From the NCBI RefSeq assembly GCF_044704955.1, contig NC_091984.1, positions 197,408,001 through 197,472,000 of the forward strand: a stretch of DNA of 64,000 bases. Reading direction: 5' to 3'. Shown one piece after another: positions 1-58,429 of this stretch (positions are counted from its first letter, which is position 1; every line of letters begins with the position of its first letter). Under the pieces are notes generated by a model. It had not been told where the DNA came from. It saw only the letters and a list, made by a program, of their open reading frames with translations, and searched no databases. A program made the translations under genes and the position numbers. Source of the DNA: Pristiophorus japonicus (Eukaryota).

Positions 1-3000
1 TCCAATATCGCGCCTCTCGGTCAGTGCGGGTCCAGTATCGCGCCTCTCGGTCAGTGCGGGTCAGTATCGCACCTCTCGGTCAGTGCAGGTTCAGTACCGC
101 ACCTCTCGGTCAGTGCAGGTCCAGTATCGCGCCTCTCGGTCAGTGCGGGTCCAGTATCGCGCCTCTCGGTCAGTGCGGGTCAGTATCGCACCTCTCGGTC
201 AGTGCGGGTTCAGTACCGCACCTCTCGGTCAGTGCGGGTCAGTATCGCACCTCTCGGTCAGTGCGGTTCAGTACCGCACCTCTCGGTCAGTGGCGGTTCA
301 GTAACCCACCTCTCGGTCAGTGCGGGTTCAGTACTGCACCTCTCGGTCAGAAGGGTCAGTACCGCACATCTCGGTCAGTGTGGGTTCGGTACCTCACCTC
401 TCGGTCTGTGCGGGGTCGGTATCGCACCTCTCGGTCAGTGCGGGTTCGGTGCCGCACCACTCGGTCAGTGCAGGTTCGGTGCCGCATCTCTCGGTCAGTG
501 CGGGGTCGGTATCGCACCTCTCGGTCAGTGCGGGTTCGGTGCCGCACCACTCGGTCAGTGCGGGTTAGGTGCCGCACCTCTCGGTCAGAAGGGTCTGTAT
601 CGCACCACTCGGTCAGTGCGGGTTCAGTACGGCACCTCTCGATCAGTGCGGGTTCAGTATCTCACCTCTCGGTCTTTGCGGTTCGGTTTCGCACCTCTCG
701 GTCAGCGCGGGTCGGTTTTGCACATCTCGGTCAGTGCGGTTCAGTACCACACCTCTCGATCAGTGCGGGTTCAGTATCCCACCTCTCGGTCAGTGCGGGT
801 TCGGTATTGCACCACTCGGTCAGTGCGAGTTCAGTATCCCACTTCTCGGTCAGTGCAGGTCGGTAACGCACCTCTCGGTCAGCGCGGGTTCAGTATCCCA
901 CCTCTCGGTCAGTGCGGGTTCAGTATCCCACCTCTCGGTCAGTGCGTGTCAGTACCGCAACTCTCGGTCAGTGTGGGTCGGAATCGCACCGCTCGGTCAG
1001 TGTGGGTCGGTATCGCACCTCTCGGTCAGTGCGGGGTCAGGATCGCACATCCCGGTCAGTGCGGGTCAGTATCGCACATCCCGGTCAGTGCCGGTTCAGT
1101 ATCCCACCTCTCGGTCAGTGCAGGTTCAGTACTGCACCTCTCGGTTAGTGCGGGGTCAGTACCGCACCTCTCGGTCAGTGCGGGTCCAGTATCGCGCCTC
1201 TCGGTCAGTGCGGGTCAGTATCGCACCTCTCGGTCAGTGCGGGTTCAGTACCGCACCTCTCGGTCATTGTGGGTTCGGTACCGCACCTCTCGGTCAGAAG
1301 GGTCTGTATCGCACCTCTTGGTCAGAAGCGCACCTCTCGGTCAATGGTAGTTCGGTATCCCACCTCTCGCTCAGTGCGGGTTCAGTACCGCACCGCTCGG
1401 TCAGTGCGGATTCAGTACGGCACCTCTCGATCAGTGCGGGTTCAGTATCCCACCTCTCGGTCAGTGCGGTTCGGTTTCGCACCTCTCGGTCAGCGCGGGT
1501 CGGTTTTGCACATCTCGGTCAGTGCGGGTTTAGCACCGCACCTCTCGGTCAGCGCGGGTTCAGTATCCCACCTCTCGGTCAGCGCGGGTTCAGTATCCCA
1601 CCTCTCGCTCAGTGCGGGTTCAGTCCCGCAACTCTCGATCAGTGCGGGTTTAGTACCGCACCTCTCAGTCAGTGCGGGTTCATTACCGCACCTCTCGGTC
1701 AGCGCGGGTTCAGTATCCCACCTCTCGGTCAGTGCGGATTCCGTTCCGCATCTCTCGGTCAGTGCGGGTTCAGTCCCGCACCTCTCGGTCAGTGCGGGTT
1801 CAGTACCGCACCTCTCGGTCAGAACGGGTTCAGTATCCCACCTCAGTCAGTGCGGGTCAGTACCGCACCTCTCGGTCAGCGCGGGTTCAGTATCCCACCT
1901 CTCGGTCAGAAGGGTCAGTGCCGCACCTCTCGGTCAGTGCGGGTTCGGTACCGCACCTCTCGGTCAGTGCGGGTTCGGTACCGCACCTCTCGGTCAGTGC
2001 GTGTTCGGTATCGCACCTCTCGGTCAGCGCGGGTTCAGTATCCCACCTCTCGGTCAGAAGGGTCAGTGCCGCACCTCTCGGTCAGTGCGGGTTCGGTACC
2101 GCACCTCTCGGTCAGCGCGGGTTCAGTATCCCACCTCTCGGTCAGAAGGGTCAGTGCCGCACCTCTCGGTCAGTGCGGGGTCGGTACCGCACCTCTCGGT
2201 CAGTGCGGGTTCAGTACCGCACCTCTCAGTCAGAAGGGTCAGTACTACACCTCTCGGTCAGTGCGCGTTCAGTATCGCACCTCTTGGTCAGTGCGGGTTC
2301 AGTATTCCACCTCTCGGTCAGTGCGGGTTCGATACCGCACCTCTCGGTCAGTGCGGGATCAGTATCCCACCTCTCAGTCAGTGCGGGTCAGAATCGCACC
2401 TCTCGGTCAGTGCGTGTTCGGTACCGCACCTCTTGGTCTGAAGGGTTCAGTATCACACCTTGTGGTCAATGCGGGTCAGTATCGCACTTCTCGGTCAGTG
2501 CGGGTTCGGTATCCCACCTCTCGGTCAGTGCGGGTTCAGTACCGCACCTCTCGGTCAGTGGCGGTTCAGTATCCCACCTCTCGGTCAGTGCGGGTTCAGT
2601 ATCCCACCTCTCGGTCAGTGCGTGTCAGTACCGCAACTCTCGGTCAGTGTGGGTCGGTATCGCACCTCTCGGTCAGTGCGGGGTCAGGATCGCACCTCTC
2701 GGTCAGTGCGGGTCAGTATCGCACATCCCGGTCAGTGCCGGTTCAGTATCCCACCTCTCGGTCAGTGCGGGTTCAGTACTGCACCTCTCGGTCAGTGCGG
2801 GGTCGGTACCGCACCTCTCGGTCAGTGCGGGTTCGCTACCACACCTCGCGGTCAGTGCGGGTTCGGTACCGCACCTTTTGGTCTGAATGGTCAGTACCGC
2901 TCCTCTCGGTCAGTGCGGGTTCAGTACCCCACCTTTTGGTCTGATGGGTTCAGTATCGCACCTCTCGGTCAGTGCGGGTTCGGTATCCTATCTCAGTCAG

Positions 3001-6000
3001 TGCGGGTTTAGTACCGCACCTCTCGGTCAGTGCGGGTTCAGTATCCCACCTCTCGGTCAGTGCAGGTTTAGTACCGCACCTCTCGGTCAGTACGGGTTCA
3101 GTACCGCACCTCTCGGTCAGTGCGGGTTCAGTATCCCACCTCTCGGTCAGTGTGGGTTCAGTATCCCACCTCTCAGTCAGCGCGGGTTCAGTATCACACC
3201 TCGGTCAGTGCGGGTCAGTACCGCACCTCTTTGTCAGCGCGGGTTCAGTATCCCACCTCGGTCAGTGCGGGTCAGTACCGCACCTCTCGGTCAGTGCGGG
3301 TTCGGTACCGCACCTCTCGGTCAGAAGGGTCATTACTACACCTCTCGGTCAGTGCGCGTTCAGTATCGCACCTCTCAGTCAGAAGGGTCAGCACTACACC
3401 TCTCGGTCAGTGCGCGTTCAGTATCGCACCTCTTGGTCAGTGCGGGTTCAGCATCCCACTTCTCGGTCAGTGCGGGTTCGATACCGCACCTCTCGGTCAG
3501 TGCGGGATCAGTATCCCACCTCTCGGTCAGTGCGGGTCTGAATCGCACCTCTCGGTCAGTGCGTGTTCGGTACCGCACCTCTTGGTCTGAAGGGTTCAGT
3601 ATCACACCTTGCGGTCAATGCGGGTCAGTATCGCACTTCTCGGTCAGTGCGTGTTCGGTACCGCACCTCTCGGTCTGTGCGGGCCGGTATCACACCTCTC
3701 GGTCGCTGCGGGTCAGTATCACACCACTCGGTCAGTGCGGGTCAGTATCACACCTCTCGGTCAGTGCGGGTTCGGTATCCCACCTCTCGGTCAGTGCGGG
3801 TTCGGTATCCCACCTCTCGGTCAGTGCGGGTTCATTACCGCACCTCTCGGTCAGTGGCGGTTCAGTATCCCACCTCTCGGTCAGTGCGGGTTCAGTACTG
3901 CACCTCTCGGTCAGTGCGTGTCAGTACCGCACATCTTGGTCAGTGTGGGTTCGGTATCGCACCTTTCGGTCAGTGCGAGTTCGGTGCCGCACCACTCGGT
4001 CAGTGCAGGTTCGGTGCCGCACCTCTCGGTCATTGTGGGTTCGGTACCGCACCTCTCGGTCAGAAGGGTCTGTATCGCACCTCTTGGTCAGAAGCGCACC
4101 TCTCGGTCAATGGTAGCTCGGTATCCCACCTCTCGGTCAGTGCGGGTTCAGTACCGCACCGCTCGGTCAGTGCGGGTTCAGTACGGCACCTCTCGATCAG
4201 TGCGGGTTCAGTATCCCACCTCTCGGTCAGTGCGGTTCGGTTTCGCACCTCTCGGTCAGCGCGGGTCGGTTTTTGCACATCTCGGTCAGTGCGGGTTTAG
4301 TACCGCACCTCTCAGTCAGTGCGGGTTCAATACCGCACCTCTCGGTCAGCGCGGGTTCAGTATCCCACCTCTCGGTCAGCGCGGGTTCAGTATCCCACCT
4401 CTCGGTCAGTGCGGGTTCAGTCCCGCACCTCTCGATCAGTGCGGGTTTAGTACCGCACCTCTCAGTCAGTGCGGGTTCATTACCGCACCTCTCGGTCAGC
4501 GCGGGTTCAGTATCCCACCTCTCGGTCAGTGCAGATTCCGTACCGCATCTCTCGGTCAGTGCGGGTTCAGTCCCGCACCTCTCGGTCAGTGCGGGTTCAG
4601 TACCGCACCTCTCGGTCAGAGCTGGTCAGTACCGCACCTCTCGGTCAGCGCGGGTTCAGTATCCCACCTCTCGGTCAGCGCGGGTTCAGTATCCCACCTC
4701 AGTCAGTGCGGGTCAGTAACGCACCTCTCGGTCAGCGCGGGTTCAGTATCCCACCTCGGTCAGTGCGGGTCAGTACCGCACCTCTCGGTCAGTGCGGGGT
4801 CGGTACCGCTCCGCTCGGTCAGAAGGGTCAGTACCGCACCTCTCGGTCAGTGCGGGTCGGTACCGCACCTCTCGGTCAGTGCGGGGTCGGTACCGCACCT
4901 CTCGGTCAGTGCGGGTTCGGTATCCCACCTCTCGGTCAGTGCGGGTCCAGTAATGCACCTCTCGGTCAGAAGTGTCAGTACCGCACTTCTCGGTCAGTGT
5001 GGGTTCGGTACCTCACCTCTCGGTCAGTACGGGTCGGTCTCGCACCTCTCGGTCAGTGCCGGTCGGTATCGCACCTCTCAGTCTGAATGGTTTAGTATCA
5101 CATCACTCGGTCAGTATCACACCGCTCGGTCTCAAGGGTCGGTATCACACCTCTCGGTCAGTGCGGGTCGGTATCACACCTCTCGCTCTGTGCGGGTCGG
5201 TACCGCACCTCTCGGTCAGTGCGGGGTCGGTACCGCACCTCTCGGTCAGTGCGGGGTCGGTACCGCACCTCTCGGTCAGTGCGGGTTCGGTATCGCACCT
5301 CTCGGTCAGTGCGGGGTCGGTACCGCACCTCTCGGTCAGTGCGGGTTCAGTATCCCACCTCTCGGTCAGTGCGGGTTCGATACCGCACCTCTCGGTCAGT
5401 GCGGTTCGGTTTCGCACCTCTCGGTCAGCGCGGGTCGGTTTTGCACATCTCGGTCAGTGCAGGTTTAGTACCGCACCTCTCAGTCAGTGCGGGTTCAATA
5501 CCGCACCTCTCGGTCAGCGCGGGTTCAGTATCCCACCTCTCGGTCAGCGCGGGTTCAGTATCCCACCTCTCGGTCAGTGCGGGTTCAGTCCCGCACCTCT
5601 CGATCAGTGCGGGTTTAGTACCGCACCTCTCAGTCAGTGCGGGTTCATTACCGCACCTCTCGGTCAGCGCGGGTTCAGTATCCCACCTCTCGGTCAGTGC
5701 AGATTCCGTACCGCATCTCTCGGTCAGTGCGGGTTCAGTCCCGCACCTCTCGGTCAGTGCGGGTTCAGTACCGCACCTCTCGGTCAGAGCTGGTCAGTAC
5801 CGCACCTCTCGGTCAGCGCGGGTTCAGTATCCCACCTCGGTCAGTGCGGGTCAGTACCGCACCTCTCGGTCAGTGCGGGGTCGGTACCGCACCTCTCGGT
5901 CAGTGCGGGTCGGTACCGCACCTCTCGGTCAGTGCGGGTTCGGTACCGCTCCTCTCGGTCAGAAGGGTCAGTACCGCACCTCTCGGTCAGTGTGGGTTCG

Positions 6001-6229
6001 GTACCTCACCTCTCGGTCAGTATGGGTCGGTCTCGCACCTCTCGGTCAGTGCCGGTCGGTATCGCACCTCTCAGTCTGAATGGTTTAGTATCACATCACA
6101 CGGTCAGTATCACACCGCTCGGTCTGAAGGGTCGGTATCACACCTCTCGGTCAGTGCGGGTCCGTGCGGGTCGGTATCACACCTCTCGCTCTGTGCGGGT
6201 CGGTACCGCACTTCTCGGTCAGTGCGGGT

Positions 6230-9200
6230 TCGGTACCGCACCTCTCGGTCAGTGCGGGTCGGTACCGCACCTCTCGGTCAGTGCGGGGTCGGTACCGTAC
6301 CTCTCGGTCAGAAGGGTCAGTACCGCACCTCTCGGTCAGTGCGGGTTCGGTACCGCACTTCTCGGTCAGTGCGGGTTCGGTATCGCACCTCTCGGTCAGT
6401 GCGGGGTCGGTACCGCACCTCTCGGTCAGTGCGGGTTCAGTACCGCACCTCTCAGTCAGAAGGGTCAGTACTACACCTCTCGATCAGTGCGCGTTCAGTA
6501 TTGCACCTCTTGGTCAGTGCGGGTTCAGTATCCCACCTCTCGGTCAGTGCGGGTTCGATACCGCACCTCTCGGTCAGTGCGGGATCAGTATCCCACCTCT
6601 CGGTCAGCGCGGGTTCAGTATCCCACCTCTCGGTCAGTGCGGGTTCAGTCCCGCACCTCTCGATCAGTGCGGGTTTAGTACCGCACCTCTCAGTCAGTGC
6701 GGGTTCATTACCGCACCTCTCGGTCAGCGCGGGTTCAGTATCCCACCTCTCGGTCAGTGCGGATTCCGTACCGCATCTCTCGGTCAGTGCGGGTTCAGTC
6801 ACGCACCTCTCGGTCAGTGCGGGTTCAGTACCGCACCTCTCGGTCAGAGCTGGTCAGTACCGCACCTCTCGGTCAGCGCGGGTTCAGTATCCCACCTCTC
6901 GGTCAGCGCGGGTTCAGTATCCCACCTCAGTCAGTGCGGGTCAGTACCGCACCTCTCGGTCAGCGCGGGTTCAGTATCCCACCTCGGTCAGTGCGGGTCA
7001 ATACCGCACCTCTCGGTCAGTGCTGGGTCGGTACCGCACCTCTCGGTCAGTGCGGGTCGGTACCGCACCTCTCGGTCAGTGCGGGGTCGGTACCGCTCCT
7101 CTCGGTCAGAAGGGTCAGTACCGCACCTCTCGGTCAGTGCGGGTCGGTACCGCACCTCTCGGTCAGTGCGGGGTCGGTACCGCACCTCTCGGTCAGTGCG
7201 GGTTCACTATCCCACCTCTCGGTCAGTGCGGGTCCAGTACTGCACCTCTCGGTCAGAAGGGTCAGTACCGAACATCTCGGTCAGTGTGGGTTCGGTACCT
7301 CACCTCTCGGTCAGTACGGGTCGGTCTCGCACCTCTCGGTCAGTGCCGGTCGGTATCGCACCTCTCAGTCTCAATGGTTTAGTATCACATCACTCGGACA
7401 GTATCACACCGCTCAGTCTGAAGGGTCGGTATCACACCTCTCGGTCAGTGCGGGTCCGTGCGGGTCGGTATCACACCTCTCGCTCTGTGCGGGTCAGTAT
7501 CGCACCTCTCGGTCAGTGCGGGTCAGTACCGCACCTCTCGGTCAGAATGGTCAGTATCGCGCATCTCGGTCAGTGCGGGTCCGGTATCCCTCCTCTCGGT
7601 CAGTGTGGGTCCGCTACCGCACCTCCCGGTCAGTGCGGGTCCAGTATCGCGCCTCTCGGTCAGTGCGGGTCAGTATCGCACCTCTCGGTCAGTGCGGGTT
7701 CAGTACCGCACCTTTCGGTCAGTGGCGGTTCAGTATCCCACCTCTCGGTCAGTGCGGGTTCAGTACTGCACCTCCGTCAGAAGGGTCAGTACCGCACATC
7801 AGTGTGGGTTCGGTATCTCACCTCTCGGTCTGTGCGGGGGTGGTATCGCACCTCTCGGTCAGTGCGAGTTCGGTGCCGCACCACTCGGTCAGTGCAGGTT
7901 CGGTGCCGCACCTCTCGGTCATTGTGGGTTCGGTACCGCACCTCTCGGTCAGAAGGGTCTGTATCGCACCTCTTGGTCAGAAGCGCACCTCTCGGTCAAT
8001 GGTAGTTCGGTATCCCACCTCTCGGTCAGTGCGGGTTCAGTACCGCACCGCTCAGTCAGTGCGGGTTCAGTACGGCACCTCTCGATCAGTGCGGGTTCAG
8101 TATCCCACCTCTCGGTCAGTGCGGTTCGGTTTCGCACCTCTCGGTCAGCGCGGGTCGGTTTTGCATATCTCGGTCAGTGCGGGTTTAGTACCACACCTCT
8201 CAGTCGGTGCGGGTTCAATACCGCACCTCTCGGTCAGCGCGGGTTCAGTATCCCACCTCTCGGTCAGCACGGGTTCAGTATCCCACCTCTCGGTCAGTGC
8301 GGGTCAGTATCGCACCTCTCGGTCAGTGCGGGTTCAGTACCGCACCTCTCGGTCAGTGGCGGTTCAGTATCCCACCTCTCGGTCAGTGCGGGTCAATACC
8401 GCACCTCTCGGTCAGTGCTGGGTCGGTACCGCACCTCTCGGTCAGTGCGGGTCGGTACCGCACCTCTCGGTCAGTGCGGGGTCGGTACCGTACCTCTCGG
8501 TCAGAAGGGTCAGTACCGCACCTCTCGGTCAGTGCGGGTTCGGTACCGCACTTCTCGGTCAGTGCGGGTTCGGTATCGCACCTCTCGGTCAGTGCGGGGT
8601 CGGTACCGCACCTCTCGGTCAGTGCGGGTTCAGTACCGCACCTCTCAGTCAGAAGGGTCAGTACTACACCTCTCGATCAGTGCGCGTTCAGTATTGCACC
8701 TCTTGGTCAGTGCGGGTTCAGTATCCCACCTCTCGGTCAGTGCGGGTTCGATACCGCACCTCTCGGTCAGTGCGGGATCAGTATCCCACCTCTCGGTCAG
8801 CGCGGGTTCAGTATCCCACCTCTCGGTCAGTGCGGGTTCAGTCCCGCACCTCTCGATCAGTGCGGGTTTAGTACCGCACCTCTCAGTCAGTGCGGGTTCA
8901 TTACCGCACCTCTCGGTCAGCGCGGGTTCAGTATCCCACCTCTCGGTCAGTGCGGATTCCGTACCGCATCTCTCGGTCAGTGCGGGTTCAGTCACGCACC
9001 TCTCGGTCAGTGCGGGTTCAGTACCGCACCTCTCGGTCAGAGCTGGTCAGTACCGCACCTCTCGGTCAGCGCGGGTTCAGTATCCCACCTCTCGGTCAGC
9101 GCGGGTTCAGTATCCCACCTCAGTCAGTGCGGGTCAGTACCGCACCTCTCGGTCAGCGCGGGTTCAGTATCCCACCTCGGTCAGTGCGGGTCAATACCGC

Positions 9201-32396: not shown

Positions 32397-34743
32397 AGTC
32401 CCCTGGTCCTGATGAAATGCATCCCAGGGTATTAAAAGAGATGGCACAAGTTATAGCAGATGCATTCGTTATAATCTACCAAAATTCTCTGGACTCTGGA
32501 GAGGTACCAGCAGATTGGAAAGCAGCTAATATAACGCCTCTGTTTAAAAAAGGGGGCAGACAAAAGGCAGATAACTATAGGCTGGTTAGTTTAACATCTG
32601 TAGTGGGGAAAATGTTTGAAACTATCATTAAGGAAGAAATAGCAGGACATCTAGATAGGAATAGTGCAATCAAGCAGACGAAGCATGGATTCATGAAGGG
32701 AAAATCATGTTTAACTAATTTACTGGAATTCTTTGAGGATATAACGAGCAGGTGGATAGAGGTGTACCGATGGATGTGGTGTATTTAAATTTCCAAAAGG
32801 CATTCGATAAGGTGCCACACAAAAGGTTACTGCAGAAGATAAAGGTATGCGGAGTCAGAGGAAATGTATTAGCATGGATCGAGAATTGGCTGGCTAACAG
32901 AAAGCAGAGAGTCGGGATAAATGGGTCCTTTTCGGGTTGGAAATCGGTGGTTAGCGGTGTACCACAGGGATCAGTGCTGGGACCACAACTGTTTACGATA
33001 TACATAGATGACCTGGAAGAGGGGACAGAGTGTAGTGTAACAAAATTTGCAGATGACACAAAGATTAGTGGGAAAGTGGGTTGTGTAAAGGGCACAGTGA
33101 AGCTGCAAAGAGATTTAGATAGGTTAAGCGAATGGGCTAAGGTTTGGCAGATGGAATACAATGTCGGAAAATGTGAGGTCATCCACCTTGGAAAAGAAAA
33201 CAGTAAACGGGAATATTATTTGAATGGGGAGAAATTACAACATGCTGCGGTGCAGAGGGACCTGGGGGTCCTTGTGCATGAAACTCTTTTTGGAGTTCAC
33301 CTGCAAAACATAAAACATTAAACGGTGCCACCCGACCTGGGTGACACTCCAGACATTTACAAGGCCCTTTTTTTTCCCCCCCCTTTTTTTTGTTTTTTTT
33401 GTGTTTTTCTTTTTTTGGTTTTTTTTTGGGCACTAAAATCACAATTTTCCCCAGTGCCCCCTATAAAAGGGAAGGGGGACACTAAAAGCACCAGCAATTA
33501 AAACAAATTAAACTTAAAAACGTAAAATCAAATTAAAATTTGGTTGCCGGGCGTGATGATGCACTCCAGTCCCTCCGGTGCCCACCTCTCGCGGAAGGCC
33601 GCGAGCGTACCGGTGGACACCGCGTGCTCCATCTCCAAGGACACCCTGGACCGGATGTAAGAGCGGAAGAGAGGCAGGCAGTCAGGTTGAACGACCCCCT
33701 CGACCGCCCGCTGCCTGGACCGGCTGATGGCACCCTTGGCCGTGCCCAGGAGCAGTCCTACGAGGAGGCCTTCAGACCTACCCGCTCCCCTCCGCACAGG
33801 GTGCCCAAAGATCAGGAGAGTGGGACTGAAGTGCAGCCAGAATTTCAGGAGCAGCCCCTTCAAATAATGGAACAGGGGCTGCAACCTCGTGCACTCAATA
33901 AAAACATGGAACACGGACTCCTCCAGACCGCAGAAATTGCAGGCGGCCTGGGAGTCCGTGAACCGGCTTAAAAATTTGTTGCACGGCACTGCTCCGTGCA
34001 CCACCCTCCAGGCCAAGTCCCCGTCCTTGTGCATGAATCCCAAAAAGTTAGTTTGCAGGTGCAGCAGGTAATCAGGAAGGCGAATGGAATGTTGACCTTC
34101 ATTGCGAGAGGGATGGAGTACAAAAGCAGGGAGGTCCTGCTGCAACCAAACAGGGTATTGGTGAGGTCGCACCTGGAGTACTGCATGCAGTTTTGGTCAC
34201 CTTACTTAAGGAAGGATATACTAGCTTTGGAGGGGGTACAGAGACGATTCACTCGGCTGATTCCGGAGATGAGGGGGTTATCTTATGATGATAGATTGAG
34301 TAGACTGGATCTTTACTCATTGGAGTTCAGAAGGATGAGGGGTGATCTTATGGAAACATTTAAAATAATGAAAGGGATAGACAAGATAGAGACAGAGAGG
34401 TTGTTTCCACTGGTCGGGGAAACTAGAACTAGGGGGCACAGCCTCAAAATACGGGGGAGACAATTTAAAACCGAGTTGAGAAGGAATTTCTTCTCCCAGA
34501 GGGTTGTGAATCTGTGGAATTCTCTGCCCAAGGAAGCAGTTGAGGCTAGCTCATTGAATGTATTCAAATCACAGATAGATAGATTTTTAACCAATAAGGG
34601 AATTAAGGGTTACGGGGAGCGGGCGGGTAAGTGGAGCTGATTCCACGGCCAGATCAGCCATGATTTTTTTGAATGGCGGAGCAGGCTCGAGAACCTAGAT
34701 GGCCTACTCCTGTTCCTAATTCTTATGTTCTTATGTTCTTATG
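32397..34743 (+). mobile_element. 5'-truncated CR1 LINE ORF2 (RT), interrupted by a Tx1 element
   Basis: GKSCLTNLLEFF, SGVPQGSVLGPQLF, KFADDTK, the C-terminal domain and a (CTTATGTT)n tail. Highly similar to the copy at 36802-39243. Confidence 0.97.
33283..34022 (-). mobile_element. 5'-truncated Tx1-clade (L1-group) non-LTR retrotransposon: ORF2 C-terminal zinc-binding (zf-RVT-like) domain plus 3'UTR
   Basis: Open frame DLAWRVVHGAVPCNKFL...CNFCGLEESVFHVFIECTRLQPLF (CCHC) ending at the stop at 33528. Perfect 15-bp TSD GTCCTTGTGCATGAA at 33268-33282 and 34023-34037. The empty site is seen at 38523-38537. Confidence 0.9.
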
Positions 34744-36697: not shown

Positions 36698-39697
36698 AGC
36701 CTAACCTATGTAAACTAGAGATGATCCAAACCCCGGCTGCCCGTGTCCTAAATCGCACCAAGTCCCGCTCACACATCACCCCTCACACATCAAAACGCAT
36801 GGGGTAGCCTTGAGGAGGAATTCATAGAATGCATACGGGATTGTTTCTTAGAACAGTATGTTACAGAACCTACAAGGGAGCAAGCTATCTTAGATCTGGT
36901 CCTGTGTAATGAGACAGGAATAATAAACGATCTCCTAGTAAAAGATCCTCTCGGAATGAGTGTTCACAGTATGGTTGAATTTGTAATACAGATTGAGGGT
37001 GAGGAAGTAGTGTCTCAAACGAGCGTACTATGCTTAAACAAAGGGGACTACAGTGGGATGAGGGCAGAGTTAGCTAAAGTAGACTGGGAACACAGACTAA
37101 ATGGTGGCACAATTGAGGAACAGTGGAGGACTTTTAAGGAGCTCTTTCATAGTGCTCAACAAAAATATATTTGAGTGAAAAAGAAGGGCGGTAAGAGAAG
37201 GGATAACCAGCCTTGGATAACCAAGGAAATAAAAGAGAGTATCAAATTAAAAACCAATGCGTATAAGGTGGCCAAGGTTAGTGGGAAACTAGAAGATTGG
37301 GAAAATTTTAAACGACAGCAAAGAATGACTAAGAAAGCAATAAAGAAGGGGAAGATAGATTACGAAAGTAAACTTGCACAAAACATTAAAACAGATAGTA
37401 AAAGCTTTTACCGATATATAAAACGGAAGAGAGTGACTAAAGTAAATGTTGGTCCCTTAGAAGATGAGAAGGGGGATTTAATAATGGGAAAGGTAGAAAT
37501 GGCTGAGACCTTAAACAATTATTTTGCTTCGGTCTTCATAGTGGAAGACACAAAAACCATGCCAAAAATTGCTGGCCACGGGAATGTGGGAAGGGAGGAC
37601 CTTGAAACAATCACTATCACTAGGGAGGTAGTGCCGGACAGGCTAATGGGACTCAAGGTAGACAAGTCCCCTGGTCCTGATGAAATGTATCCCAGGGTAT
37701 TAAAAGAGATGGTGGAAATTATAGCAGATGCATTCGTTATAATCTACCAAAATTCTCTGGACTCTGGGGAGGTACCAACGGATTGGAAAGCAGCTAATGT
37801 AACGCCTCTGTTTAAAAAAGGGGAGCAGACAAAAGGCAGGTAACTATAGGCCGGTTAGTTTAACATCTGTAGTGGGGAAAATGCTTGAAGCTATCATTAA
37901 GGAAGAAATAGCGGGACATCTAGATAGGAATAGTGCAATCAAGCAGACGCAACATGGATTCATGAAGGGGAAATCATGTTTAACTAATTTACTGGAATTC
38001 TTTGAGGATATAACGAGCATGGTGGATAGAGGTGTACCGATGGATGTAGTGTATTTAGATTTCCAAAAGGCATTCGATAAGGTTACTGCAGAAGATAAAG
38101 GTATGCGGAGTCAGAGGAAATGTATTCGCATGGATCGAGAATTGGCTGGCTAACAGAAAGCAGAGAGTTGGGATAAATGGGTCCTTTTTGGGTTGGAAAT
38201 CGGTGGTTAGTGGTGTGCCACAGGGATCGGTGCTGGGACCACAACTGTTTACAATATACATAGATGACCTGGAAGAGGGGACAGAGTGTAGTGTAACAAA
38301 ATTTGCAGATGATACAAAGATTAGTGGGAAAGCGGGTTGTGTAGAGGACACAGAGAGGCTGCAAAGAGATTCAGATAGGTTAAGCGAATGGGCTAAGGTT
38401 TGGCAGATGGAATACAATGTCGGAAAATGTGAGGTCATCCACCTTGGAAAAAAAAACAGTAAAAGGGAATATTATTTGAATGGGAGAAATTACAACATGC
38501 TGCGGTGCAGAGGGACCTGGGGGTCCTTGTGCATGAATCCCAAAAAGTTAGATTGCAGGTGCAGCAGGTAATCAGGAAGGCAAATGGAATGTTGGCCTTC
38601 ATTGCGAGAGGGATGGAGTACAAAAGCAGGGAGGTCCTGCTGCAACTGTACAGGGTATTGGTGAGGCCACACCTGGAGTACTGTGTGCAGATTTAGTCAC
38701 CTTACTTAAGGAAGGATATACTAGCTTTGGAGGGGGTACAGAGACGATTCACTCGGCTGATTCCGGAGATGAGGGGGTTACCTTATGATGATAGATTGAG
38801 TAGACTGGGTCTTTACTCATTGGAGTTCAGAAGGATGAGGGGTGATCTTATAGAAACATTTAAAATAATGAAAAGGATAGACAAGATAGAGACAGAGAGG
38901 TTGTTTCCACTGGTCGGGGAGACTAGAACTAGGGGGCACAGCCTCAAAATACGGGGGAGACAATTTAAACCGAGTTGAGAAGGAATTTCTTCTCCCAGAG
39001 GGTTGTGAATCTGTGGAATTCTCTGCCCAAGGGAGCAGTTGAGGCTAGCTCATTGAATGTATTCAAATCACAGATAGATAGATTTTTAACCAATAAGGGA
39101 ATTAAGGGTTATGGGGAGCGGTCAGGTAAGTGGAGCTGAGTCCACGGCCAGATCAGCCATGATCTTTTTGAATGGCGGAGCAGGCTCAAGGGGCTAGATG
39201 GCCTACTCCTGTTCCTAATTCTTATGTTCTTATGTTCTTATGTGCTCACTGACCTACAGTGACTCCCCATTAAGCAAAGCCTTGATTTCAAAATTCTCAT
39301 CCTTGTTTTCAAATCCTTCCATGGCCTCGTTCCTCCCTATCTCTGTAATCTCCTTCAGCCCCAGAACGCCCCGAGATATCCATGCTCCTCTAATTCTGCC
39401 CTCTTGAACATCGCTGATTATAATCGCTCAACCATTAGTGGCCGTGCCTTCTGTTCCCCAGGCTCCAAGCTCTGGAATTCCTTACCTAAACCTCTCTTCC
39501 TCTCCACCTCTCTTTCCTCCTTCAAGAAGCTCCTTAAAACCTACCTCTTTGACCAAGCTTCTGGACATCTGCCCTAATTTCTCCTTATGCGGCTCGGTGT
39601 CAAATTTTTAATCTCATAATACTCCTTGAGATGAAGCGCCTTGGGATGTTTCACTACGTTAAAGGCGCTATAACTACATGTTGTTGTTGTTGTTGTT
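36698..39697 (+). mobile_element. L2 LINE 3' fragment (36698-36783 and 39242-39697) split by a CR1 insertion
   Basis: ...GTCCCGCTCACACATCACCCCT | GTGCTCACTGACCTACA... joins as in the L2 at 44743-45915. (TTG)n tail at ~39680-39697. Confidence 0.85.
36802..39243 (+). mobile_element. 5'-truncated CR1 LINE ORF2 (end of APE domain + RT + 3'UTR), frameshifted
   Basis: EPTREQAILDLVLCN, PWITKEIK, KSPGPD, GKSCLTNLLEFF, KFADDTK and a (CTTATGTT)n tail. Confidence 0.97.
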
Positions 39698-47877: not shown

Positions 47878-48907
47878 GTGGGGTACCGCAAGGTTCTGTG
47901 CTGGGGCCCCAGCTGTTTACATTGTACATTAATGATTTAGACGAGGGGATTAAATGTAGTCTCTCCAAATTTGCGGATGACACTAAGTTGGGTGGCAGTG
48001 TGAGCTGCGAGGAGGATGCTATGAAGCTGCAGAGTGACTTGGATAGGTTAGGTGAGTGGGCAAATGCATGGCAGATGAAGTATAATGTGGATAAATGTGA
48101 GGTTATCCACTTTGGTGGTAAAAACAGAGAGGCAGACTATTATCTGAATGGTGACAGATTGGGAAAAGGGAAGGTGCAACGAGACCTGGGTGTCATGGTA
48201 CATCAGTCATTGAAGGTTGGCATGCAGGTACAGCAGGCGGTTAAGAAAGCAAATGGCATGATGGCCTTCATAGCGAGGGGATTTGAGTACAGGGGCAGGG
48301 AGGTGTTGCTACAGTTGTACAGGGCCTTGGTGAGGCCACACCTGGAGTATTGTGTACAGTTTTGGTCTCCTAACTTGAGGAAGGACATTTTTGCTATTGA
48401 GGGAGTGCAGCGAAGATTCACCAGACTGATTCCCGGGATGGTGGGACTGACCTATCAAGAAAGACTGGATCAACTGGGCTTGTATTCACTGGAGTTCAGA
48501 AGAATGAGAGGGGATCTCATAGAAATGTTTAAAATTCTGATGGGTTTAGACAAGTTAGATGCAGGAAGAATGTTCCCAATGTTGGGGAAGTCCAGAACCA
48601 GGGGTCACAGTCGAAGGATAAGGAGTAAGCCATTTAGGACCGAGATGAGGAGAAACTTCTTCACCCAGAGAGTGGTGAACCTGTGGAATTCTCTACCACA
48701 GAAAGTTGTTGAGGCCAATTCACTAAATATATTCAAAAAGGAGTTAGATGTAGTCCTTACTACTAGGGGGATGAAGGGGTATGGCGAGAAAGCAGGAAAG
48801 GGGTACTGAAGTTGCATGTTCAGCCATGAACTCATTGAATGGCGGTGCAGGCTCGAAGGGCCGAATGGCCTACTCCTGCACCTATTTTCTATGTTTCTAT
48901 GTTTCTA
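47878..48907 (+). mobile_element. 5'-truncated CR1 LINE inserted in the Gypsy element
   Basis: GVPQGSVLGPQLF, KFADDTK and a (CTATGTTT)n tail. Near-identical to 55958-56751. Confidence 0.97.
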
Positions 48908-55859: not shown

Positions 55860-57355
55860 TTTTGAAACACTAAAGGTTAGTATGCAGGTACAGCAAGTGA
55901 TCAGGATGGCCAATGGTATCTTGGCCTTTATTGCAAAGGGGATGGAGTATAAAAGCAGGTGGTAAAAACAGAGAGACAGACTATTATCTGAATGGTGACA
56001 GATTAGGAAAAGGGCAGGTGCAAAGAGACCTGGGTGTCATGGTACATCAGTCATTGAAGGTTGGCATGCAGGTACAGCAGGCGGTTAAGAAAGCAAATGG
56101 CATGTTGGCCTTCATAGCGAGGGGATTTGAGTACAAGGGCAGGGAGGTGTTGCTACAATTGTACAGGGCCTTGGTGAGGCCACACCTGGAGTATTGTGTA
56201 CAGTTTTGGTCTCCTAACCTGAGGAAGGACATTCTTGCTATTGAGGGAGTGCAGCGAAGGTTCACCAGACTGATTCCCGGGATGGCGGGACTGACCTATC
56301 AAGAAAGACTGGATCAACTGGGCTTGTATTCACTGGAGTTCAGAAGAATGAGAGGGGACCTCATAGAAACGTTTAAAATTCTGACGGGGTTAGACAGGTT
56401 AGATGCAGGAAGAATGTTCCCAATGTTGGGGAAGTCCAGAACCAGGGGACACAGTCTAAGGATAAGGGGGAAGCCATTTAGGACCGAGATGAGGAGGAAT
56501 TTCTTCACCCAGAGAGTGGTGAACCTGTGGAATTCTCTACCACAGAAAGTTGTTGAGGCCAATTCACTAAATATATTCAAAAAGGAGTTAGATGAAGTCC
56601 TTACTACTAGGGGAATCAAGGGGTATGGTGAGAAAGCAGGAATGGGGTACTGAAGTTGCATGTTCAGCCATGAACTCATTGAATGGCGGTGCAGGCTCGA
56701 AGGGCCGAATGGCCTACTCCTGCACCTATTTTCTATGTTTCTATGTTTCTAAGTCTTGCTACAGCTATATAAGGTATTGGTGAGGCCACACCTGGAATAC
56801 TGCGTAAGTTTTGGTTTCCATATTTACGAAAGGATATACTTGTTTTGGAGGCAGTTCAGAGAAGGTTCACTAGGTTGATTCCGCGGATGAGGGGGTTGAC
56901 TTATGAGGAAAGGTTGAGTAGGTTGGGCCTCTACTCATTGGAATTCAGAAGAATGAGAGGTGATATTATCGAAACGTATAAGATTATGAGGGGGCTTGAC
57001 AAGGTGGATGCAGAGAGGATGTTTCCACTGATGGGGTAGACTAGAACTAGAGGGCATGATCTTAGAATAAGGGGCCGCCCTTTTAAAACAGAGATGAGGA
57101 GAAATTTCTTCTCTCAGAGGATTGTAAATCTGTGGAATTCGCTGCCTCGGAAAGCTGTGGAAGCTGGGACATTGAATAAATTTAAGACAGAAATAGACAG
57201 TTTCTTAAAAGATAAGAGGATAAGGGGTTATGGGGAGCGGGCAGGGAAGTGGAGCTGAGTCCATGATCAGATCAGCCATGATCTTATTGAATGGCGGAGC
57301 AGGCTCGAGGGGCCGAATGGCCTACTTCTGTTCCTATTTCTTATGTTCTTATGTT
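55860..57355 (+). mobile_element. CR1 3' fragment (55860-55959 and 56752-57355), host of a second CR1
   Basis: GAGTATAAAAGCAGG | AAGTCTTGCTACAG is contiguous once the insert is removed. (CTTATGTT)n tail. Confidence 0.9.
55958..56751 (+). mobile_element. Young CR1 3' fragment nested in another CR1
   Basis: Intact frame GGKNRETDYYLNG...GYGEKAGMGY and a (CTATGTTT)n tail. Confidence 0.95.
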
Positions 57356-58429
57356 CTCCAGAGCCTTATCACATAATCATGGCAAACATTTCAGCGTAGT
57401 ACTGAAGGAATGCTGCCGTCCTATTTCTTATGTTCTTATGTTCATATATCTTTTGGATGAGATGTTAAACAGAGGCCCCATCTGCCTATTTAGATGGACA
57501 TAAAATATCCCATGGCAGTATTCAAAGAAGAGCAGGGGAGTTCTCCTGATGTCCAGGCCAACAATTATCCCTCAACCAGCACCACCAAAAACAGATGAAC
57601 TAGTCATTTAATTCACTGTTGTTTGTAGGACCTTGCTGTGCGCAAGGTGGCTGCTGTGTTTGCCCATATAACCACAGTGACTATATTTCAACAGTAATTA
57701 ATCAGCTGTGAAGCACTTTGGGATATCAAAGGTGCTATATAAATATGAGTTCTTTCTTTCTAATGCAGAAGCTGGGGACTACCACTATCTGACCTAGTCA
57801 TTGGCCCACATAGTTTACTTGCTGCATGTGACCAATATGGCTGAAACTTACCTGATCAGAGATATGAGGGTATTGCTGAAACAATAGCAGTGATGTGCTT
57901 GGCTATAATAGTGTTGTAAAATTCTTGGTACAATGATTCAGGCTTTTTTTTGTGGATTGATCTTTGTGGTACAGCTGTCATAGTTTAAACTAACAATTTA
58001 GGTCAGGATTTGTCATTTGATTTAAAGCCACTGAAAAAGTTAGAACAATATCCAAGATCAATAATAAATGGGAAGATTTGTGTTTACCATGTCAGCCTTC
58101 CTTTCAGGAATTCGTTTTCCTCCCTGCCAAAACAATCATTGGCCCGACATGCACGCATCTATATCGAATCCAACCCTGCTCGTGCTTTCGCCTGTGTGAG
58201 GGCCATGGTTGCATGGGTGTGGGGGCACTGAGTGAGGAGGTTGAGGACAGAGAGGAGGAAACTATGTGCACTGTCAGTCGATGCATAGGAAAGGAACAGC
58301 GACAGCTCAGCACATTGGAAGGAGAGCTCGACAGAGAGGGAGTGAGAGCAAATACCTGGGCTGAGACAGGGGATGGACACCATTCAGAGTCGGGACACTA
58401 GTTTAAAAATGAAATGTATTCATTTTGGC

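Follow-up and report, generated by a model that had tools for sequence, protein, structure and literature searches.

The insertion in the 64,000-nucleotide stretch analysed here (the window, to which positions without a contig refer) is best explained, and with high probability, as a truncated copy of a young Tx1-lineage LINE that inserts antisense at one fixed base of the reverse transcriptase (RT) coding region of one CR1 lineage, with its endonuclease leading the choice of site. That the family targets CR1 coding sequence in a site-specific manner is real, and we hold this with near certainty. What would set the site, how copies stack there and what the insertions mean for CR1 are claims of graded strength, which are treated below together with their alternatives.

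The insert, its host and its family

The initial annotation had described a 740-bp insert lying antisense in ORF2 of a CR1 element between exact 15-bp duplications, and had pointed to an empty site in a sister CR1. Both descriptions proved accurate, and the features of the locus are as follows.

32397..33282, plus strand: 5'-truncated upstream part of the host CR1-type LINE, with the RT domain; 94% identity to the sister copy; RVT_1
33268..33282, plus strand: target-site duplication at the element 3' end; exact copy of GTCCTTGTGCATGAA
33283..34022, minus strand: truncated Tx1-lineage LINE copy, 740 bp, 5'-truncated; corresponds to the 3'-terminal ~735 bases of the 7.19-kb element
33283..33527, minus strand: 3' UTR of the insert, 245 bp; A-rich low-complexity stretch; ends AAAAAGAGT; no poly(A) tail
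33528..34022, minus strand: C-terminal 164 aa of ORF2, with zinc-finger-like motif and stop codon; matches the end of an intact ORF2
34023..34037, plus strand: target-site duplication at the element 5' end; exact copy of GTCCTTGTGCATGAA
34023..34743, plus strand: downstream part of the host CR1-type LINE, with a (TTCTTATG)n end; 96% identity to the sister copy
36801..39245, plus strand: sister CR1 copy, start approximate; empty target at 38523-38537

The empty target of the sister CR1 is a third exact copy of GTCCTTGTGCATGAA, giving three matches in the window where 0.20 were expected, a number that none of 100 shuffles reached. Throughout the family, the duplication consists of a 14-bp core plus 0-2 bases, the extra bases of which can be microhomology, and the 15-mer of the window is probably this core plus one base. 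Aligned over 742 bp, the insert and positions 6451-7185 of a natural full-length copy share 97.2% identity, and the element 3' end, AAAAAGAGT, was identical in 30 of the 30 loci of a second sample. The zf-RVT-like frame that had been noted in the insert was likewise recovered, with 164 aa open on the minus strand up to a stop at 33528, its match to the domain being weak (E 1.8e-5; 25.7 bits, below the 27.5 cut-off).

On the host side, the flank upstream of the insert matches RVT_1 (E 3.6e-20), and the host RT matches LINE proteins of birds (about 45-55%) and proteins of cartilaginous fish (60-65%). CR1 is the dominant LINE of birds. The host shows the CR1-clade features of an RT related to vertebrate LINEs and a 3' end made of short tandem repeats, (TTCTTATG)n; the RT matches themselves carry no CR1 label, and the name CR1 as used here is taken from the dominant bird LINE and the repeat end. 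Because the host starts only ~860 bp upstream of the target site (at 32397) and carries several indels relative to its sister, it was, judging from its sequence, probably already non-functional before the insertion.

The natural full-length copy of the inserting element measures 7,185 bp. One intact copy has a separate ORF1 of 699 aa, carrying a weak CCHC knuckle (zf-CCHC, E 0.003, under cut-off), and a 1,299-aa ORF2 with Exo_endo_phos (E 1e-10), RVT_1 (E 5e-37) and zf-RVT (E 8e-5, under cut-off) matches. Exact matches to a 20-mer of its 3' UTR number 13,095 in the 5.92-Gb genome. The family is young and, since both ORFs were open in 13 of the 38 full-length copies recovered, likely still active. 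Membership of the Tx1 clade, as proposed from the truncated copy, is upheld by the full-length element, with its APE-RT-zf-RVT ORF2, and by its RT. ORF2 is 49% identical to that of Xenopus Tx1L (UniRef YTX2_XENLA) over 1,297 aligned residues, rising to 63% in the RT region. Tx1L ORF2 was the top-scoring named known element among the matches listed, reaching 1,076 bits (residues 1-900 as query) as compared to 270 bits for human L1 ORF2 (whole protein). In an RT tree built from 24 of the 120 matches listed, which was midpoint-rooted without an L1 outgroup, the element groups with Tx1L and with turtle, sturgeon and stingray proteins in a set of seven rows supported at 100/100, its nearest relative among these 24 being a stingray protein (74% over 301 residues), which makes a cartilaginous fish the likely source of the genome. 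Teleost relatives fall on the other side of this 24-match tree, for example Tetraodon Q76IM5, which we take to be a member of the Keno/Kibi/Koshi group.

Target choice across the genome

Specific targeting of CR1 coding sequence had initially been proposed from one insertion, with heterogeneous 3' flanks in other copies named as the contrary outcome. Genome-wide, the flanks were found to be nearly uniform. Sample 1 took in every one of the 78 clusters formed by the first 100 listed matches on contig C1, with 80 stretches of 10 kb; its loci were picked by position alone. The samples used here come from this one contig, in part from a duplicated end region. Here, 128 of 140 units, the window included, ended at the target motif with at most two mismatches. 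Counted by locus, 68 of 78 ended at TTCATGCACAAGGA, and CR1 was directly observed there in 63 of 78 (55 at first and 8 after extending 14 loci), the remainder being five arrays with ends unreached or broken and ten off-target loci (nine plus L088). Sample 2, which covers all subfamilies and includes two previously analysed loci among its 30, had 28 loci on the motif, 14 with CR1 directly, 13 in tandem and 1 with a diverged CR1-like flank. All on-target insertions were antisense to CR1, and their flanks consisted of LINE RT sequence or a further copy of the element, not of Tx1D, Mariner, U2 snRNA or (TC)n/(TTC)n. For Tx1 families, target preference has been accepted when over 20% of flanks are of one type (PMC4494074), a share that CR1, at 63 of 78 loci, exceeds. 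A 28-mer from the 3' end of the window's subfamily gave 1,279 matches, of which at least 730 are joined to the 14-bp target; this is a lower bound, because the exact pattern misses any target variant.

Away from the target, 8 of 11 flanks begin with TTC, five of these with TTCAT. One off-target copy (L206; contig C1, 7.43 Mb) ends at TTCAGG in sense orientation, in what appears by eye to be a LINE endonuclease-coding stretch. Of the 20 sequence runs of other species listed, none was of RNA; among four runs examined, two organisms have the empty CR1 site together with pieces of ORF2, and none of the contigs listed for the four runs spans an element 3' junction.

Insertions at the CR1 site are independent of one another, because no two of the 23 single insertions flanked by CR1 on either side have the same 5' end, the ends ranging from element position 1 to 7125, and because the duplications copy host variants: a 13-16-bp target duplication is present in 21 of the 23, and variant bases of the host recur in both duplication copies (L038, L041, L083). 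These data bear on the possibility that one or a few CR1-Tx1 composites were spread by the CR1 machinery or by segmental duplication and simply inherited their flank. Duplicated filled loci do exist locally, one scar being present in four copies, and a star-like tree of 40 filled and 21 empty hosts is compatible with a single filled clade (p-AU 0.12); the filled/empty label was clustered beyond 500 shuffles, partly through near-duplicates in the empty sample, which came from a duplicated chromosome end. However, inheritance of the flank is at odds with the 23 distinct 5' ends, each with CR1 on both sides and with the duplication intact. Furthermore, identity to the CR1 of the window is only 70-82% in 6 of the 40 filled hosts, so that hosts come from different CR1 subfamilies with host-specific duplications, chimeras headed by tRNA or 5S RNA sit at the same site, and the scar family has four copies only. 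Spread of composites is thereby largely refuted, and we give it almost no probability.

A CR1 with a 33-bp Tx1 scar was also considered as a spreading subfamily and rejected, its four copies belonging to one duplicated region. They lie in a >98% identical segment found at four places near the contig end (L112, L113, L115 and L118; contig C1, 0.2-3.3 Mb), where the CR1 and its scar are located in an LTR-retrotransposon-like RT gene and the segment adjoins a 21-bp tandem repeat.

Exact counts in the same upstream context gave 7,603 filled-type vs 29,315 empty CR1 sites. Upon inspection, 19 of the first 20 filled-type sites were true insertions and one was a native CR1 variant, while 20 of 20 empty sites were CR1; some of the 19 hold only 5-33 element bases, and seven fall in two apparently duplicated groups. 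We estimate the occupancy of this CR1 lineage, which carries CATGAA at the target, at about 20%. A second CR1 lineage, of about 70-72% identity, has CATCAG at this position and makes up 23 of the 44 sites spanning it in 1.22 Mb of sampled DNA, a count that includes two single-base variants and in which 8 of the 44 rows were picked by target pattern. For the CATCAG lineage, the one junction position searched yielded 0 junctions vs 138,159 exact empty sites. The window holds copies of this lineage at 47878-48903 and 55863-57357, both uninserted and with CATCAG at the homologous site.

Proposed insertion mechanism and stacked copies

The fixed site is likely due to the APE endonuclease recognising and nicking that CR1 sequence. 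Based on the anatomy of the insertions and on Tx1L biochemistry, as given in excerpts of PMC1950540, we infer a nick and priming model in which the endonuclease would cut the CR1 sense strand at GTGCATGAA^TC (CATGAA^TC). In the window, the first nick would then fall just after the 33268-33282 duplication, where the E codon of DLGVLVHES meets the S codon. The free 3' end at the nick would prime reverse transcription, and the second strand would be cut about 14 bases from the first nick. Element transcripts are predicted to carry no poly(A) tail and to run on into the duplicated target, and such read-through RNA could pair with the nicked primer, sharpening specificity. That RNA-primer pairing may contribute is suggested by a read-through insertion at L088 (with L163; contig C1, 273.46 Mb), the one 3' transduction of this kind seen, in which the element end, followed by the target and by 175 bases from the next unit, occupies a non-CR1 site with a 13-bp duplication of its own. 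CR1 would chiefly represent an abundant and dispensable landing site.

An alternative places the specificity in the RNA, with an endonuclease that loosely prefers TGAA and read-through target RNA that selects CR1 by pairing with the nicked strand. The missing poly(A) tail and the target following nearly every copy, so that read-through RNA matches the primer, agree with this, as do the transfer of target and neighbouring unit to the foreign site at L088 and the prevalence of TTC in off-target flanks. On the other hand, off-target sites sharing 1-5 bases still show 8-15-bp duplications and the same 3' end, and the Tx1L endonuclease is specific alone, nicking almost only its own target in vitro according to the same excerpts (PMC1950540). 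We therefore consider it unlikely that RNA leads, although endonuclease and RNA pairing can act together. Far less credible is near-random insertion at TTCA-like sites, with selection sparing the copies that fell in harmless repeats. This reading would accommodate the 10 of 78 off-target loci and the position of L206 at a different CR1-like sequence, yet selection cannot pick one base and one orientation inside dead repeats, and the CATCAG lineage, over four times as abundant, has no junction at the position searched. Moreover, with ~37,000 exact sites among the 2 x 5.92e9 positions available, each random insertion would have a chance of 3e-6 of hitting the target.

Returning to endonuclease-led insertion, the target duplication would regenerate the site, and later copies would therefore stack in front of earlier ones. 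Element arrays of >30 kb were found at the CR1 target, with their units separated by the CR1-derived 14-mer, and arrays were anchored in CR1 wherever their ends were reached. The 5' breakpoint was common to 21 of 31 adjacent pairs with a truncated 3' neighbour, eight of these 21 coming from one array, as compared to 4 of 780 pairs across loci. Divergence between neighbours with a common breakpoint is mostly about that of unrelated copies; of the 122 non-CpG differences separating them, 79 are variants that also occur at other loci. By their sequences, such neighbours appear to stem from different source lineages. In the simplest reading, new cDNA would often be joined by homology to the 5' end of the resident copy, and annealing there would produce the equal breakpoints. 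Thousands of junctions, together with stacked copies reusing a resident breakpoint, bear on how LINE 5' ends join. Duplication of a long 5' stretch of the neighbour by the upstream copy was mostly rejected, since in 6 of 8 pairs the first differences appear 17-240 bases away from the breakpoint.

Unequal exchange may add some identical units to the arrays. Plain duplicates occur in the L101 group, with 1-4 differences in 5.7 kb, and in one L077 pair, with 0. Higher-order repeats in which a short-short-full order recurs were observed at L042 and L107 (contig C1, 57.74-57.77 and 353.53-353.55 Mb), and their sequence suggests unequal exchange atop serial insertion. A further array, at L083 (contig C1, 256.52-256.53 Mb), consists of nine stacked ~290-bp units that all begin at element position 6892 and have different subfamily tails, its host being a diverged CR1 with a variant target. 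For repeat annotation, 7-kb arrays inside CR1 are a source of distortion in such genomes.

Possible consequences for CR1 and relation to known systems

The initial annotation had also suggested that the family may act as a hyper-parasite that inactivates CR1 copies. About 20% of the sites of one lineage are filled, but most sampled hosts were already truncated, and inactivation of CR1 is a conjecture. The CR1 match of 22 among 39 sampled hosts extends no further than about 1.1 kb upstream of the site, and the host in the window is truncated upstream too, so many insertions probably fell in dead CR1 copies. In its fuller form, the hyper-parasite reading holds that the family suppresses CATGAA CR1 by breaking its sources and through antisense read-through RNA, and that the CATCAG lineage persists by escape. 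Apart from the occupancy, it can draw on a cut within the conserved DLGVLVHES coding motif, on insertions that are always antisense while read-through occurs, on host and insert divergences of similar size and on the greater abundance of the unhit CATCAG lineage. Nonetheless, we find it doubtful, given hosts that were probably dead beforehand and about 80% of sites being empty; in addition, with about 30% divergence between the two CR1 lineages, escape is not required to explain the CATGAA/CATCAG difference. Equally improbable in our view is a LINE-on-LINE arms race in which a fifth of the lineage is broken, antisense read-through floods the cell and evolutionary shaping has made the CATCAG lineage dominant. 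Source CR1s may nevertheless bear a cost, or be silenced by antisense read-through. Having hit and unhit CR1 lineages side by side makes competition between transposable elements testable inside one genome.

Targeting of DNA transposons and LTR elements by Tx1 families is already known, the targets described being Tx1D, Mariner, Harbinger, LTR elements, U2 snRNA and microsatellites (PMC4494074, PMC6719617, PMC4640811, PMC3747384). A Tx1 family targeting CR1 was not found in the literature searched, partly present as excerpts and with Repbase, Dfam, subscription journals and the supplementary target figures of PMC4494074 outside its scope; within these bounds, the CR1 target is new. It adds a target class for site-specific LINEs, namely the coding region of an unrelated LINE clade, hit in a vertebrate at one base thousands of times.

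The closest parallel is Tx1L of Xenopus laevis, which resides in Tx1D. It belongs to the same lineage, has the same APE-RT-zinc finger layout and, as stated in excerpts of PMC4494074, PMC1950540 and PMC6719617, also uses one site inside another transposable element. The target of Tx1L is a non-autonomous DNA transposon, whereas here it is the RT-coding region of an autonomous-type LINE of another clade; likewise, the hairpin loop of the Tx1L endonuclease, TYVRVRDGHVSQS, differs from the shorter loop of the element, TWVRPGVGWS. With intact ORF2 copies 49% identical to Tx1L and with another target and loop, the two form a natural pair for examining sequence reading by APE. Keno, Kibi and Koshi, also of the Tx1 clade, share the sequence-specific insertion into multicopy DNA (PMC4494074, excerpts), their targets being U2 snRNA, (TC)n and (TTC)n instead of CR1. 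Zepp and ZeppL of green algae are L1-group LINEs that similarly enter LINE sequence and form arrays of truncated copies, and the consulted portion of PMC8226300 describes Zepp as targeting its own copies in one cluster per chromosome. In contrast, the element studied here enters an unrelated LINE, at sites that are dispersed and number in the thousands. Self-nesting of the Zepp type is absent: arrays grow at the regenerated CR1 motif, their units split by the CR1-derived 14-mer.

The crocodilian families Tx1-Mar, Tx1-8_Crp, Tx1-4_AMi, Tx1-9_AMi and SINEU prefer sites in Mariner, LTR and Harbinger elements and resemble the present family in having tandem insertions that sandwich the duplication, antisense insertion at one site and small-RNA 5' heads (PMC4494074, in the sections available). 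According to the same sections, their copies are old (85-87% to consensus) and no LINE target is named, whereas the element here is young, with open ORFs. The capture of small RNAs is alike in crocodilian Tx1/SINEU, but those families take up U1/U2 in the available account (PMC4494074) and the element here takes up pre-tRNA-Asp and 5S RNA. Pre-tRNA-Asp with its 3' trailer, or 5S RNA, is joined to the tail of the element or to its last bases, mostly at the CR1 target. Such chimeras were observed at L131 (C1, 11.27 Mb), L132 (C1, 199.09 Mb), L133 (C5, 282.80 Mb), L134 (C9, 18.10 Mb) and L104 (C1, 343.04 Mb), and are possible raw material for a CR1-targeting SINE. An existing tRNA-Asp SINE partner was considered and rejected, as most of the 99 matches are grouped on a single contig and resemble arrays of tRNA genes; the 20 matches inspected comprised three chimeras at the CR1 site, one off-target chimera and 16 that were neither. 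Many dispersed and ~1.97-kb tandem tRNA-Asp gene units are located on contig C23, at 14-64 Mb, and on small contigs.
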